Notes under the pieces: generated by a model
The model's input: only the letters and a program-made list of their open reading frames with translations
The model's database searches: none
What the model was told of the DNA's origin: nothing
Source of the DNA: Myxococcota bacterium
Lineage (GTDB): Bacteria > Myxococcota_A > UBA796 > GCA-2862545
Reading direction: 5' to 3'
Assembly (NCBI GenBank): GCA_039208735.1
Contig: JBCCQY010000005.1
Span: 1 to 64,000, forward strand
DNA length: 64,000 nt
Part shown: in pieces, positions 45,573-50,832 of the stretch
Layout: every line of letters starts with the position of its first letter
Position numbering within the stretch: the first letter of the stretch is position 1
Translations under genes and position numbers: made by a program

Positions 45573-46990
45573 AACACTCGAAAGCTCTGGTGGGGGTCGT
45601 TGGTTTCGCGATCTTCGGATGTTCACAACCCGACATGGCCCGCAACGGGACCCGTCTGCCGGTCGTCGAGCCTGACGAGCACGCCAGGGGGTTCGTCTAC
45701 GGCGACATCGAAGGACACACACTTGGAAGTACCGTTGCGTGTGGACCCGACGTGGATGGGAACGGGCTTGGTGATGTTTCCTTCACGGCCGACAACTTTG
45801 ACTACCAGATTCGGCTCGCCGACACGAGTCGGGCGATCTACCGTGCGAATGGACCCCTAGTCGATCGTGTCCGCCACGACGAAATCGATGGCTGGCATAT
45901 CCGCGAGGGGGCCCTCCTCACACCCAGCTTTGGCCATGGGCACGTGCTCCTCGAGGCTCCACACCCAGCAGGACTCCTCTTCGTGGGCACGACCAACGAC
46001 CTTGATCGAGAGCCTGAACAAGATGGCACGCAGATGGCCCGCTTCGCGAGGACGAACGAGGCCGAGGTGGCCGATGTCCGTGATGCCTACATCAACTTCG
46101 CGGGGACAAGTGCACTGAATGCCCAGCTTCTTCCTGACCTCAATGGAGACGGCCTTCCGGAGGTGGCGCTTGGCCATAATCGCTTCGGCGTGCTGATCCT
46201 GACTGCGCCGCCGAATGGCGAGGTGGATGTCGAGGAAGCTGCGTGGGCAACACTCGGCATCCCGGAGGAGAACTCGACCGCAATCGTTGGCAGTAGCTTG
46301 TTGCCCGGTGATTTCGACGGCGACGGGTCCACCGACCTCTCGGTTCAGGTGATCGGGGCGGACCATCCGTTTCCGGGTGAGGTGGTGGTCGTCTTCGGGC
46401 CTTTGGAGCCGGGCTCCTACGCGCTCGGCACGGGCAGCCGTGAGCTCGCCATCGACGGGCTTCGCGAGGCCGGTTTGACGCGGTTGGGTCAAGCGTCAGG
46501 GGACTTGAATGGCGATGGAATCGACGATCTGATTTTGGCGACCCATACTGGACCGGATGGGGGTTGGGTTCGGGTCTACTTCGGCCCTCTCATGCCAGGC
46601 ATTCTCAGTGCAGACTCGGCGGATGTGGTTCTTGCACCTGAACAACCCGGAGCTTGGTTCGGCACGTCCGTCGTCGTCGGGGACTTCGATGGATCAGGCG
46701 ACCCTGCTCTTGCGATTGGTGCGAGCATGAACGGCTTTTATGACGAGGATGCCCCTCCCGGACTGGTGTACGTGATGCGGGCCCCGTTCCTGGCCGGAGC
46801 TCGGGTTCCAGACGATGTTCAGACCGTGCTCCAAGGGAAGCACCCCCGGGACAACTTTGGGTGGTCGCTTGCGGCTTGCGATACCGATCGAGACGGTCGC
46901 GATGAGCTCGTGATTGGAGCGACGGATCACACGGAGCGGCGACGAGCGCAGCGAGGTGGCGCGGTCTATCATTCGGTCGTCCCACCGTGA
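45569..46990 (+). CDS. FG-GAP/integrin-alpha repeat lipoprotein
   Basis: GTGA overlap with the upstream stop; lipobox-like IFGC; DVDGNGLGD, DLNGDGLPE, GDFDGDGSTD, GDLNGDGIDD, FGWSLA..D.D.DG.DE.VIGA. Confidence 0.85.
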   Translation: MKHSKALVGVVGFAIFGCSQPDMARNGTRLPVVEPDEHARGFVYGDIEGHTLGSTVACGPDVDGNGLGDVSFTADNFDYQIRLADTSRAIYRANGPLVDRVRHDEIDGWHIREGALLTPSFGHGHVLLEAPHPAGLLFVGTTNDLDREPEQDGTQMARFARTNEAEVADVRDAYINFAGTSALNAQLLPDLNGDGLPEVALGHNRFGVLILTAPPNGEVDVEEAAWATLGIPEENSTAIVGSSLLPGDFDGDGSTDLSVQVIGADHPFPGEVVVVFGPLEPGSYALGTGSRELAIDGLREAGLTRLGQASGDLNGDGIDDLILATHTGPDGGWVRVYFGPLMPGILSADSADVVLAPEQPGAWFGTSVVVGDFDGSGDPALAIGASMNGFYDEDAPPGLVYVMRAPFLAGARVPDDVQTVLQGKHPRDNFGWSLAACDTDRDGRDELVIGATDHTERRRAQRGGAVYHSVVPP

Positions 46991-47094
46991 ATTCCCGACG
47001 AAGCCAGTGGGTAGCGGAAGACCGATGACGTGCGTCCGCCCCGCGTCAGGGTTCGATACTCGATCATGGCCCGCGCTGGACGTCGGACCAACGG

Positions 47095-47633
47095 ATGCAG
47101 GATGCGCTCGCCGAGCCTCCAGCTCTGCCGCCGCCGGCGTCGGCAAGTCCGAGAGGTTGCGGCAACGCGATGCCGCACCCTGGACCCAGGCCTGTCCGAA
47201 CGAAGCCCAACGCATCCCCCTATGCACGGTGTGGACGACATGGGTGCGAAACACGGGCCCCGACGATCTGTGGGTCGAGGCCTTCGTGTTGCGGGCCGAC
47301 GGCACCACCCGAACCTTGCAGGGCGATGCGGGGCGCCACCGACTGGCCGGTGGGGGCAACGGAGGGGGGGCTCGTGGTGGGCTGCCGAGGCGACTTCACT
47401 CCCGAGGCCACCGCAATGACCGAGCACTTCGTCAGCTGCCTGCAGGGGCCCTACCGGACCGGCGATGTGCTGGTGTGGCAGGGGGTTGGCCCACCAACGA
47501 CGCATGGGTCGGGCACACGGTGATGGTGGTCGACCCCGACCGTTACCTCGGCTGGGGCAGTCACGGATGGGCCACCTCCGACAACCCCGATGCCCGTGCC
47601 CACGGCGGCGGGGCTCTCCTCCTGCGACCCTGA
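47095..47633 (+). pseudogene. Fragmented NlpC/P60-like peptidase remnant
   Basis: Pieces in different frames: TGDVLVWQG and VGHTVMVVDP...WGSHGW; no intact start or catalytic DCS motif. Confidence 0.4.
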
Positions 47634-47740
47634 CACATGTGCTGAGTAGCAGACGAACGGTCAATACAGTGGCCGCTTAGATTGCGCGCAAGCCGCTAAC
47701 CGGCCGCTGGGCTGAGCGACTCATGGGGGCGGACCGGGTT

Positions 47741-47763
47741 GCCGCCCACAAAGCGTGGGCGGC
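47741..47763. terminator. Stem-loop just downstream of the ATP-grasp gene
   Basis: GCCGCCCAC-AAAGC-GTGGGCGGC, a perfect 9-bp stem 10 nt past the stop at 47774; no clear U-tract. Confidence 0.5.
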
Positions 47764-47773
47764 CGGTTCGTAA

Positions 47774-48715
47774 CTACGCCGCGAGGTCGACGGACCGAAG
47801 CTCGCGTTCAATCAGCGCAGCCAGGGCGCCCATCCCCGACAGCCCGTGCTGGGCTTCGACATCGCCGTTGTAGTTGGTCGTGCCGTTGATGTCGTAGGTG
47901 TAGCGGACCCGGTTGGCGTCTTCGACGAACTCGATGCCCGCCAGGTCCAAGCCGTTGTTTCGCATGAGTTCGATGTACGACTGCACGAGCGGATCGTCGG
48001 CCGTGATTTCGCTACGAAGGCTGAATTTGCCCGTGTCTCCGACGGGGCAGAACTCATCGTCGATGGCGCAGGCGTCGGCCGGGCAAAGCTCGAAGCCGTC
48101 TTCCGTGCTCGACCGCAGCGCGTACTGGAACACGCCATCAACGATCTCGATGCGGGTGATGAAGGCCTCAGCGGGCGTGACGTACTGCTGGAGGAGCGTG
48201 ACGCCATCGGGGCCTTCGATGAAGTCTGGGCCGTCGACATAGGCATCGAACGCCGCGAGGTCCCGGAAGAGCTTTACGCCAAGGCCCTTTCCGCCCTGGT
48301 TGTCCTTTGTGATGAAGGGCAGGGGGAAGTTGCGGGCCGCCGCCTTGAGGGGTTCGGGACCGCCTACGACGGCTACGGTGCGCGGTGAACGAATGCCCGC
48401 GCGGCGAAGGGCCAGGTCCTGGGCGACTTTGCTCACCTCGAGCGCGAACGCCTGGCTTCCATTGATCACCCGACGGCCGTGGTGCTCCAGGTACGTCAGG
48501 TACTGCTGCAGGAAGCGAACGCCTCCCTGGTGGCCACGGGTATGGGCCGAGGGACTCATGCGATTGAGGAAGATGCCTTCTGGCGGTGGGACCGACAGGT
48601 CGATGTGGCCGCCCGTCACGCGGTGCTCTTCCCAAGTCACACCGCGCGCGGAAAGGGCGGTGCGAAGCGGAGGCATCCAATCTTCATTTTCGAACAGCAC
48701 ATGGAGAACAGACAT
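47774..48715 (-). CDS. RimK/glutathione-synthetase-like ATP-grasp ligase
   Basis: NRMSPSAHTRGH, VING...LEVSK, TKDNQGGKGLGV, LLQQYV, GIEF, YDINGTTNYN; Cys motif ELCPADAC..FCP; GGGAG RBS. Confidence 0.85.
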   Translation of the reverse strand: MSVLHVLFENEDWMPPLRTALSARGVTWEEHRVTGGHIDLSVPPPEGIFLNRMSPSAHTRGHQGGVRFLQQYLTYLEHHGRRVINGSQAFALEVSKVAQDLALRRAGIRSPRTVAVVGGPEPLKAAARNFPLPFITKDNQGGKGLGVKLFRDLAAFDAYVDGPDFIEGPDGVTLLQQYVTPAEAFITRIEIVDGVFQYALRSSTEDGFELCPADACAIDDEFCPVGDTGKFSLRSEITADDPLVQSYIELMRNNGLDLAGIEFVEDANRVRYTYDINGTTNYNGDVEAQHGLSGMGALAALIERELRSVDLAA

Positions 48716-48824
48716 CGGCGACTCCCGCAGGGGCCTGCCGAAGGTTCTCTACTCCCGTCAGCAGGCTACACCTGCCGTGACGAGTTGAGGCTTGGTTCGT
48801 TTCGCTAGCCCACGCCGTCACGGC
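48716..48824 (-). promoter_or_regulatory. Putative attenuator with alternative RNA pairings
   Basis: mRNA segments 1 GCCGUGACG (48824-48816), 2 CGUCACGGCAGG (48782-48771), 3 CCUGCUGACG (48765-48756) and 4 UCGGCAGG (48741-48734) allow 1:2, 2:3 and 3:4 pairing; segment 4 can also pair with CUGC next to the SD. Confidence 0.65.
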
Positions 48825-48879
48825 CGCTGGAACAACAGCAGCAACAACAACAAGTGGCGGTGGCGACGAAGCGATTCAT
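48805..48879 (-). CDS. Poly-cysteine leader peptide MNRFVATATCCCCCCCSSGRDGVG
   Basis: ATG 48879 to TAG 48805; seven consecutive Cys codons TGT TGT TGT TGC TGC TGT TGT (48852-48832); same strand as, and 89 nt upstream of, the ATP-grasp gene. Confidence 0.8.
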   Translation of the reverse strand: MNRFVATATCCCCCCCSSGRDGVG

Positions 48880-48891
48880 GTGAGTGGCGAC

Positions 48892-48920
48892 GTCGTATCG
48901 ACGGCGACTGGAAATGGCAA
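48892..48920 (-). promoter_or_regulatory. Possible sigma70-type promoter for the leader
   Basis: TTGCCA-17 nt-TACGAC, ending 12 nt before the leader ATG; the -10 match is weak. Confidence 0.35.
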
Positions 48921-48955
48921 CCGACCCGACGCGGACGTCGCTACTCAGCACGTCA

Positions 48956-49834
48956 TCAGCCCTCGGAGTCGGTCTCGAGCCAGGCCATACCCGTCGGATT
49001 GGTATCTGTGGCGTTGTTTTCCATCGACTGCAGCACGCCGCCGCCGACGTCTTCGATGGTCATGTCGATGAGGGGCTTCAGCACGAAGGGGGCCGTGCTG
49101 TCGTCGGGCACGGGTTCCACCGAGATGACGGCTGTGAGGCCCACGAGATCAAGTTCGGGCTCCACGAAGTCCTGACCGGGGAACGGAGGCGTGTCGTCCG
49201 GTCCCGCCGCGGGGCCACCGGCATCCGAGTCCGCCCCTTCGCCCGAGGCGAAGGTACCCGTCGAGATCGGACCGTCGCTCGTGACAACCCAGCCTTCGTA
49301 GACCCAGCCTTCGGGAAGGGTCGGCAGGTCGGCCGAGGCCGCGGGGCCAGCCGGGTCGAGGAACCAGATGCCGAGCGAGAAGTCGTCCATGATCATACTG
49401 GTCGACGGCGTTTCGAGGATGAAGTCAGCCGTCGCGTCGGTCAGATCGGTGCCCAACGCGGCGGGATGCGCGATCGACAGCGATGCGGTGTCGTCCTCAC
49501 CGAAGTCTCCGCCCAGCAGCTTGACCGCGGAGGGCGCGGGATCGTCGCCCTGTTCGGGCTCGATCGACAACACGTACGCTTCGAGGCCGGCCACCTGGTC
49601 GGCGGTCAGGTCGAACGCATCGAGGCTGGCCGTTCCGTCGGAGCCCACCGAGAAGCGGCCCGTCGAGACCGGGGATCCATCAACGATGGCCCAGGCTTCG
49701 TAGACGAATCCAGTTCCTAGCGGCTCGAGGCCTTCGAGCTGCCAGCGCAGCGTCGCGCCGTCATTGGTCTCGGTCGCGGGGTCGCCACAGGCCGCAAGCG
49801 CCAACAACCCAAGCATCGAAAAGCGCGTCATCAT
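48956..49834 (-). CDS. Lipoprotein with internally duplicated domain (family often labelled 'anti-sigma factor')
   Basis: Lipobox LAAC; repeats LEPL..GFVYEAW.IVDG.PVSTGRF / LPTLPEGWVYEGWVV..DGPISTGTF; SIEP/SVEP..DD. Confidence 0.7.
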   Translation of the reverse strand: MMTRFSMLGLLALAACGDPATETNDGATLRWQLEGLEPLGTGFVYEAWAIVDGSPVSTGRFSVGSDGTASLDAFDLTADQVAGLEAYVLSIEPEQGDDPAPSAVKLLGGDFGEDDTASLSIAHPAALGTDLTDATADFILETPSTSMIMDDFSLGIWFLDPAGPAASADLPTLPEGWVYEGWVVTSDGPISTGTFASGEGADSDAGGPAAGPDDTPPFPGQDFVEPELDLVGLTAVISVEPVPDDSTAPFVLKPLIDMTIEDVGGGVLQSMENNATDTNPTGMAWLETDSEG

Positions 49835-49901
49835 CGTACCTCCTGGCTCTTCAATCGCTTTGGTCGGCTCTGAAGTCCAACGAGATAATCTGACCCTACT
49901 G

Positions 49902-49916
49902 TTTAGAAATTTTAAA
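49902..49916. promoter_or_regulatory. LysR-type T-N11-A dyad site between divergent genes
   Basis: TTTA-GAAATTT-TAAA, an AT-rich dyad 22 nt upstream of the LysR start. Confidence 0.55.
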
Positions 49917-49938
49917 TGGTTTGAGAAAGGGTTGGACG

Positions 49939-50832
49939 ATGGAACATCTTCGGCGAGTGAGCCAGCTGTGGAATTGGCTACCGGCGTTTCGAGCTGTGGC
50001 CGAAACCGAGCATCTGCCTACAGCATCGAAGGGACTGCATGTCACGCCGGCCGCCTTGTCACGCACCGTGCGACTGCTCGAGGATGACTTGGGGCATCCG
50101 CTGTTCACGCGCCGAGGCCGACGCCTGCTTCTCAATGACGACGGGCGGATCTTCGTGAGCGCGGTGCGGTCGGCGATGCGGCTTGTGCACGACGCCATGG
50201 AGCAGCTTGGGCGATCGACCTTGGCCGGACCGGTACGGGTCGCGGCAGGTGGCGTGTCGCAGGTGTTTGCCCGACGGGCGCTTGGGGAGGTCCGACGCCG
50301 CCATCCGGCGCTGGTCCCCCACATGCTCACCCCACGGCCGAGCACCACCTCGGGCGATCTACGTCAGGGAAACCTCGATCTCGTTGTGTCCAGCTTCATC
50401 GTGCGTGACGACGGGATCGAGACGGAACTGCTGGGGCACGACACGAACGGGGTGTACTGCGGGATCGGCCATCCCCTTCACGGAACAGACGCTTCGCTCG
50501 ACACCATCCTTGAGCATCCGTTTGCGGCTCCGCCGGCCGATGCGGCAGGGGTCACGCCCGAAGGGTGGCCACCGGAGGTTCCCCGCATCGTGGGCATGGT
50601 CCTCGACCGCATTTCCGCCGGAGTGGAGGTGTGCGCGATGGGGGATCTGCTCGCGGTCCTGCCCGATGCCCTGGCCAGGACAGACCCGCGATTGCAACGA
50701 TTGAACGTCGAGCTGATTCCTCCGACGCCCATCGTTGCGATGTACCGGCCTCACCTGGGGACCAAGGGGCCGGTTGCGGTGGTGCTCGAGTTGCTGCGGT
50801 CCGAGCTTAACGGTTCGACGAACCTGGCGTGA
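49939..50832 (+). CDS. LysR-family transcriptional regulator
   Basis: FRAVAETEHL..AS..LHVTPAALSRTVRLLEDDLG.PLF.R.GR.L; LAGPVRVA; GNLDL. Confidence 0.9.
   Translation: MEHLRRVSQLWNWLPAFRAVAETEHLPTASKGLHVTPAALSRTVRLLEDDLGHPLFTRRGRRLLLNDDGRIFVSAVRSAMRLVHDAMEQLGRSTLAGPVRVAAGGVSQVFARRALGEVRRRHPALVPHMLTPRPSTTSGDLRQGNLDLVVSSFIVRDDGIETELLGHDTNGVYCGIGHPLHGTDASLDTILEHPFAAPPADAAGVTPEGWPPEVPRIVGMVLDRISAGVEVCAMGDLLAVLPDALARTDPRLQRLNVELIPPTPIVAMYRPHLGTKGPVAVVLELLRSELNGSTNLA

Follow-up and report, generated by a model that had tools for sequence, protein, structure and literature searches.

A candidate cysteine-sensing leader upstream of an ATP-grasp ligase gene in a Myxococcota bacterium

Classical attenuators (trp, his, leu, thr, and pheA) combine a leader open reading frame (ORF) containing control codons with helices that exclude one another according to the position of the ribosome. 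For cysteine, the nearest tested system is mycobacterial Ms5788A, or the "Cys ribulon" (Canestrari et al., bioRxiv 10.1101/834739), which the available part of that text describes as polycysteine, leaderless small-ORF (sORF) attenuators, with the Cys codons of Ms5788A pairing with the Shine-Dalgarno (SD) region in one stable duplex. The accessible portion of a further source (PMC1262725) reports predicted Cys leader peptides for actinobacterial cys and cbs operons; a 2026 paper (PMC13236596) names only M. smegmatis for cysteine translation attenuation in its available text, and the available text of PMC2965389 contains no Cys leader. In the literature found, experimentally shown cysteine-codon attenuation is confined to mycobacteria. 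Here, we report the computational analysis of a 24-codon ORF with seven tandem Cys codons upstream of an ATP-grasp ligase gene on contig JBCCQY010000005.1 of a Myxococcota bacterium (assembly GCA_039208735.1; "the window" is the whole 64,000-nucleotide [nt] stretch analyzed). The leader is very probably a real, conserved cysteine-codon attenuator; in the freely available literature searched, main texts only, we found nothing on Cys leaders in Myxococcota or Deltaproteobacteria, nor on this ligase family.

The leader ORF (MNRFVATATCCCCCCCSSGRDGVG followed by a stop codon; 48879-48805, minus strand; layout MNRFVATAT-C7-SSGRDGVG) is separated by 89 nt from the 313-amino-acid (aa) ligase gene (48715-47774, minus strand), and the whole element is shorter than 170 nt. 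As the original prediction from the sequence had it, the ORF is unannotated, no SD precedes its ATG, and its Cys codons mix TGT and TGC (48852-48832, in the order TGT TGT TGT TGC TGC TGT TGT; five TGT and two TGC). Runs of TGY codons, counted on both strands of the 9.4-Mb genome, number 58 for four codons, 4 for five, and none for six, and the sole run of seven is the one in this leader. Upstream of the ATG, an SD-like GAGGG and an in-frame GTG (48880-48964, minus strand) stand directly after the stop codon of an RskA_C-domain gene, with no terminator between; the resulting 48-codon version would be usable only on a read-through transcript. A leader from the same genus (L001:2760-2916) has about 50 codons, an extra ARCACARF stretch ahead of the main Cys run, and a weak predicted SD switch.

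Genome and metagenome searches yielded 179 ligase loci, 142 of them distinct once near-copies were removed; 9 were dropped (no gene start or less than 200 nt upstream), leaving 133. A leader was scored where a stretch of 7 codons contained at least 4 Cys and a stop came no more than 30 codons later. Cys-rich leaders precede 61 of these 133 distinct homologues, compared with 0/133 on the antisense strand, 0/127 downstream, and 2/126 at 350 to 700 nt upstream, and the Cys run is thus conserved in front of homologous ATP-grasp genes. The leader peptides share just the Cys run and a G-rich tail; the peptide itself is not kept, and what the leaders maintain is limited to the Cys run and the RNA segments. 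A second family of the same class carries the leader in 6/7 genomes (L019, L228, L231, L232, L233, and L235). Among 24 loci from other classes of the phylum, the 1 over threshold is a Cys-Pro repeat without the layout, and one Gemmatimonadota record (L018) has a leader. Two close ligases of the same family (L004 and L005) have no Cys leader, and a TetR-like gene comes next in both; in L005, the ligase is divergent from metY-metX, and an ArsM-like methyltransferase gene also follows. At L090 and L154, the ORFs upstream of the ligase have spaced Cys codons (CKPCKxC), unlike run-type leaders.

Similar leaders stand before other sulfur genes. When the genome was scanned for Cys-rich sORFs preceding genes, 15 candidates emerged, of which two are convincing besides the ligase leader; the remainder look like chance frames. 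One of the two (L185:9497-9660, minus strand; G000:C78) precedes cysH, a NirA/Sir-like reductase gene, and cysG and is terminator-less like the ligase leader. It has a strong predicted SD hairpin, with an SD opening cost of 8.4 to 9.3 kcal/mol for a stalled ribosome versus 15.6 kcal/mol for a ribosome at the stop codon (a predicted switch of about 5 to 7). The other (L184:6808-7034, minus strand; G000:C25) is rich in Cys and Met, precedes metY-metX-thrA, and has its control codons near the stop, as do L273 to L275. Cys- or Met/Cys-rich leaders were found at 4/5 metY loci. From 66 cysH matches in the order, 30 loci were sampled and 29 had sufficient upstream DNA; 15 of the 29 carry a leader (antisense, 0). 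A covariance model built from 18 terminator-less leaders was run on 49 genomes of the family and recovered its training set, two ligase leaders outside that set (G003 and G016), and 8 further matches, namely, 3 Cys leaders before sulfite-reductase-like genes, 2 before cysteine-synthase-like genes, and 3 matches without the leader layout. A weak match to the model, without a Cys run, was seen at L250:1200-1800 (G000:C65), where two successive hairpin-plus-U-tract elements precede an apparent tRNA gene.

Signs of translation were sought in 78 leaders, 73 of which have an in-frame ATG or GTG shortly 5' of the Cys run; an SD precedes the start in just 6 of these 73. Hexamers starting with TA peak 6 to 7 nt before the leader start (32/73), with lesser matching peaks at 9 and 12 nt, and TTG peaks 29 to 30 nt before it (22/73). 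Together, the hexamer peaks and the rarity of an SD constitute a putative signature of leaderless mRNA across the leader class. The locus at 48879 belongs to a smaller group with the -10-like hexamer shifted to 12 nt, which predicts a transcript with about 5 to 6 nt 5' of the leader ATG. The -35/-10 pair originally claimed does sit where it was placed (TTGCCA, 17 nt, and TACGAC, 12 nt before the ATG) but fails a sigma-70 consensus scan (0 promoter sites in 47500-49200), and it is only the positional peaks in relatives that back the predicted promoter position. TGT accounts for 249 of the 403 Cys codons (62%) in the 78 leaders versus 30% in long ORFs of the genome. This codon is read by wobble from a single tRNA-Cys; the bias would sharpen sensitivity, and pairing constraints could also explain it.

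Five RNA segments, 0 to 4 (Table 1), offer alternative pairings. The perfect 9-nt complement reported between the 3' end of the ORF and a downstream segment is real (48824-48816 with 48782-48774; helix 1:2), although modest on its own (66/5,000 shuffles reach 9 nt), and the alternative helices 2:3 and 3:4 exist as claimed. Segment 4, held to pair next to the GGGAG SD of the ligase, does form such a helix, but it pairs with the SD itself, in two possible registers, and not just beside it. Absent from the earlier account is helix 0:1, in which the 3' half of the ORF pairs either with the 5' half or with the Cys codons, so that untranslated RNA is predicted to fold into the OFF state. Segment 3 lies where relatives of the terminator type have a 3' arm and U-tract. 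The absence of a U-tract terminator at the locus was upheld (0 terminator-like sites in a scan of 47500-49200), and no known Rfam cis-regulatory RNA matched at the gathering score in 46277-50215.

Ribosome positions were modeled by constrained folding of the leader minus the stretch that the ribosome would cover. When the ribosome was stalled at Cys 1 to 6 and the RNA extended no further than the SD or ATG, helix probabilities were 0.8 to 1.0 (1:2) and 0.95 to 1.0 (3:4); a ribosome at the stop codon gave 2:3 and the SD hairpin, and ribosome-free folding paired the 5' half of the ORF and the Cys codons with segment 1 and returned the OFF fold. In predicted OFF folds, the partner of the SD is segment 4, and the Cys codons pair inside the ORF. 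Opening the SD cost 1.1 to 3.1 kcal/mol in the stalled state versus 4.7 to 8.3 kcal/mol at the stop codon (three footprint sizes; 3' ends up to ATG+12), a difference of 2.7 to 6.9 kcal/mol, which was reached in 0/200 and 3/200 trials when the segment after the Cys run was shuffled. The proposed consequence of stalling, 1:2 plus 3:4 with the SD free, was thereby reproduced by folding at this locus.

In 9 close leaders, helix 1:2 is paired at 93%, and 4/10 of its pairs have changed on both sides, above shuffles and slides, and covariation is present in this stem; kinship of the sequences inflates the test, and the 9-row count excludes L054 and L065, which were misaligned by MAFFT. In a column scan of 18 other leaders, the three highest-ranked helices were 1:2, 2:3, and 3:4 (94, 85, and 83%), and 4:SD came seventh among the ten listed (72%); there were also look-alike cross pairings among the helices. 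Labels for 71 leaders comprised 25 terminator-type, 42 terminator-less (L030 included), and 4 unassigned; the types are clustered yet interleaved on the ligase tree, and the locus described here falls in a mostly terminator-less group. A first accessibility test, in which the SD through the start codon was opened, was noisy (18/43 up, 9 down), and opening of the SD only was used instead. The difference in SD opening was at least 1.5 in 14 to 18 of the 42 terminator-less ligase leaders (opposite direction in 4 to 7), in 6 to 10 of 14 cysH leaders (opposite in 0 to 2), and in 0/22 terminator-type leaders. Automated picking of a long duplex and the best hairpin often mistook 3:4 for 2:3, the locus at 48879 included, and its full-cascade counts (11/41, 4/14, and 1/22) were not used as evidence. 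Tandem Cys ORFs occur in 4/78 leaders (L067 and L069 before the ligase, L187 and L197 before cysH), the first with a U-tract terminator and the second terminator-less with an SD-closing hairpin, which suggests two separate outputs. A similar upstream U-tract was seen in L195, L196, and L199.

Because the leader recurs before the same ligase and before sulfur-assimilation genes, a cysteine gauge read by the ribosome is the most likely explanation. In the model that we favor, to which we assign a probability of about 70% as a whole, the leader would be a ribosome-mediated cysteine sensor with a translational output, relayed by helices to the ligase SD. A nearly leaderless mRNA would begin about 6 nt before the leader ATG. 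When charged tRNA-Cys is scarce, the seven Cys codons would stall a ribosome, which, at Cys 1 to 6, would cover segment 0 and leave segment 1 free, allowing 1:2 to form; segment 3 would then take segment 4, and the SD would be open (ON). A ribosome reaching the stop codon would cover segment 1, 2:3 would form, and segment 4 would close the SD (OFF); with no ribosome, 0:1 would lead to the same OFF fold.

Several results weigh against this model, or narrow it. With 30 coding bases included, the difference between stalled and stop states falls to about 1.3 kcal/mol, since segment 4 also pairs around the start codon; the ON fold is thus favored chiefly during transcription of the first coding bases, and the decision is probably made in a cotranscriptional window. 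Shuffling does not remove the difference entirely (12/41 still reach at least 1.5). Helices 2:3, 3:4, and 4:SD are complementary in 75 to 85% of cells over the 18 leaders, with weak covariation (22 to 49 of 500 shuffles as high). Fewer than half of the terminator-less ligase leaders have a predicted SD switch, and the 13 closest leaders include 6 that switch and 2 that reverse, one of the latter being the same-genus L002 (-2.3). The metY leader of the same genome has neither a U-tract nor a predicted SD switch (3.7 versus 3.6). The covariance model gives no match to the leader at 48879-48805, whose segments are a sequence variant, and at 60 of the 133 ligase loci the clustered Cys codons upstream number fewer than 3.

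Some of these points bear on the same cysteine sensing with a transcriptional output, in which 2:3 would be a pause or a terminator without a U-tract, or Rho would load on the C-rich spacer after the ribosome departs, with SD pairing secondary. The 2:3 hairpin is the terminator in terminator-type relatives, which share the ligase tree with the other type, and the leaders that lack an SD switch (more than half of the terminator-less ligase leaders, and the metY leader) would also fit; in addition, Rho was proposed for actinobacterial cys leaders in the available text of PMC1262725. The locus itself, however, has no U-tract, many leaders preserve a segment 4 complementary to segment 3 as well as to the SD, and the four tandem loci, where a terminator-type leader is followed by a terminator-less one ending at the SD, suggest two different outputs. 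We regard a transcriptional output as unlikely and retain the translational relay.

Readings that assign the peptide a role of its own fare worse. Cys-rich peptides can bind metals, and the ligase has a conserved Cys loop, so the stall might depend not on charged tRNA-Cys but on, for instance, a nascent poly-Cys peptide that binds metal or is oxidized inside the exit tunnel; yet the residues flanking the Cys run are not conserved, the runs vary from about 3 to 10 Cys, the downstream genes serve cysteine and methionine supply, Met and Cys codons are mixed in metY leaders, and the codon bias is toward wobble-read TGT, which together make such a stall very improbable. Slighter still are the chances that the peptide is the product, either a precursor of a ribosomally made and post-translationally modified peptide (RiPP) that the ATP-grasp enzyme modifies or a peptide resembling metallothionein. 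The ORF does adjoin an ATP-grasp gene, and the graspetide ligases PsnB and PruB are among the fold matches, but at ranks 16 and below, behind ArgX, DcsG, LysX, and RimK; no leader or core sequence is conserved, nearly half of the ligases have no such ORF, and the same type of ORF precedes cysH, sulfite reductase, and cysteine synthase genes without an adjoining ligase. A chance triplet repeat in a GC-rich spacer, to which the appearance of a 9-nt complement in 1.3% of shuffles lends a little, is effectively eliminated by a run unique in the genome and by a leader that is strand and position specific in 61/133 homologues. The ribosome-read cysteine sensor thus remains the preferred reading.

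Table 1. Features of the leader and of the ligase gene, with positions in the window
Feature	Position	Strand	Basis
-35-like hexamer TTGCCA, predicted promoter	48915..48920	-	Sequence; TTG positional peak in relatives; fails consensus scan
-10-like hexamer TACGAC	48892..48897	-	Sequence; TA peaks 6-7, 9, and 12 nt before leader starts of relatives
Possible in-frame GTG extension, 48-codon version	48880..48951	-	GAGGG 8 nt 5' of GTG
Leader ORF, 24 codons, without SD	48805..48879	-	Sequence; conserved as a class
Seven tandem Cys codons (control codons)	48832..48852	-	Sequence; genome-wide run count; TGT bias
Segment 0, C-rich 5' half of ORF; segment 1 is its predicted partner in ribosome-free RNA (default OFF)	48853..48870	-	Ribosome-free folding
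Segment 1, GCCGTGACG, inside ORF, 7 nt past Cys run	48816..48824	-	Helix 1:2 paired 93%
Segment 2, partner of segment 1 or 3	48771..48782	-	Folding; covariation count
Segment 3, partner of segment 2 or 4	48756..48765	-	Folding
Segment 4 (anti-SD), partner of segment 3 or of SD and pre-ATG bases	48734..48743	-	Folding; matching columns in 18 related leaders
Ligase SD, GGGAG	48722..48726	-	Sequence; GGAG to ATG, 6 nt
ATP-grasp ligase (313 aa; stands alone) with RimK/LysX/ArgX/DcsG-like fold; relatives annotated as "alpha-L-glutamate ligase"	47774..48715	-	Searches and structure model
C211-P-A-D-A-C216...C223-P loop	48047..48085	-	Conserved motif; low-confidence loop in model

The ligase had no match in a Pfam search, and its match to TIGR00768 (RimK family) was weak and far below the cut-off. 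Its structure model (predicted local distance difference test [pLDDT] score, 88) gave a template modeling score (TM-score) of about 0.7 to ArgX, DcsG, LysX, and RimK at 14 to 20% identity; a sequence search for solved relatives returned nothing beyond weak RimK matches (E value, 0.04), and the ESM Atlas gave RimK-like cluster names only. CP[AS]xxC is present in 140/140 ligase sequences, with the third CP in 107, and residues 210 to 227 have a pLDDT below 50. Among 8,000 candidates scored, 3,504 matched the family; sampling outside the phylum yielded little (0/351 small genomes centered on a Bacilli record; 3/251 Actinomycetota). None of 159 neighboring ORFs is a conserved operon partner, and the ligase is usually alone. 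A GshB identity was rejected (no TIGR01380 match at E values up to 1), as was replacement of gshB, which is present separately over the cut-off in this genome and in 136/154 genomes of the order.

By its gene neighbors and regulation, the ligase may belong to sulfur or thiol metabolism, as originally proposed. At L233 and L235, a Cys leader, the ligase, and a CysM-like cysteine synthase form one apparent operon; in a Bacillus (L053:4762-6957), a SAM (S-adenosylmethionine) riboswitch, an SfnG-like luciferase-family monooxygenase (below the cut-off), and the ligase overlap; and a Pediococcus plasmid (L052:3667-6918) carries a subthreshold T-box, a thioredoxin-domain gene, a dicarboxylate/amino-acid symporter, and the ligase. 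With its UGGU box, this T-box presumably is not Cys specific, a further point against the overall interpretation and against a strict link of the ligase to cysteine. We suggest, tentatively, that the substrate on which the ligase makes an amide (or thioester) bond is a small molecule containing sulfur, as part of cysteine supply or of the salvage of organic sulfur; this step is the weakest part of the explanation.

As a broader and equally tentative proposal, one class of Myxococcota may run sulfur assimilation through genome-wide Cys-codon leaders built on one RNA module, whose output could take the form of either a terminator or an SD-closing relay, the two sometimes in tandem. The widespread CPxxxC ATP-grasp family would thereby be marked as an enzyme, so far undescribed, that serves cysteine supply or the salvage of organic sulfur. 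If true, ribosome-read cysteine sensing would be a general design, and one added segment would rewire a transcription attenuator to translational control. The regulatory logic itself is textbook; terminator and SD-closing forms would occur, on another RNA architecture, in an uncultured Gram-negative lineage, and the orphan CPxxxC ligase family would gain a concrete lead, that of sulfur-containing substrates.

Compared with known systems, the ligase resembles the RimK, LysX, ArgX, and DcsG enzymes in fold, unlike them in its low identity, its own invariant CPxxxC loop, and the lack of a conserved carrier-protein or pathway gene beside it. Graspetide clusters have a conserved precursor with a leader and a core of Asp/Glu plus Ser/Thr/Lys, whereas the peptides here share Cys runs only, and the ligase is nearest to ArgX, DcsG, LysX, and RimK.

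With classical attenuators, the leader shares control codons and mutually exclusive helices (1:2 versus 2:3), segment 1 corresponding to the 5' arm of an antiterminator, and its terminator-type relatives fit them in layout; amino-acid supply genes downstream are seen for the sister leaders (cysH, sulfite reductase, and cysteine synthase). It differs in having no U-tract, in that the 3' arm of the terminator hairpin competes for the anti-SD segment, and in its control codon, Cys. As in the translational attenuators ermC and cat, in the sources available in part, a stalled leader-ORF ribosome would rearrange hairpins and free a downstream SD; their stall comes from an antibiotic and nascent-peptide contacts, whereas here it would come from amino-acid shortage. 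The actinobacterial cys and cbs leaders, as given in the accessible portion of PMC1262725, likewise have Cys runs in a short ORF and no intrinsic terminator, but are without conserved hairpins, in contrast to the conserved competing helices found here.

The leader is closest to the Ms5788A type as set out in the available text: consecutive Cys codons in a short upstream ORF (at least 2 needed, seven here), a leaderless or nearly leaderless sORF (here predicted from the sequence, at 5 to 6 nt), control of SD access without a terminator (here by folding prediction), an OFF state when untranslated (measured in mycobacteria, predicted here), and several independent loci per genome before cysteine-related genes. 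Unlike in Ms5788A, the Cys codons are not paired with the SD in the predicted folds; the segment 3' of the Cys run would act through a relay (1:2, 2:3, 3:4, and 4:SD), the phylum is another one, and sister leaders use terminators. What would be new here is thus known cysteine-codon attenuation with a different RNA architecture.

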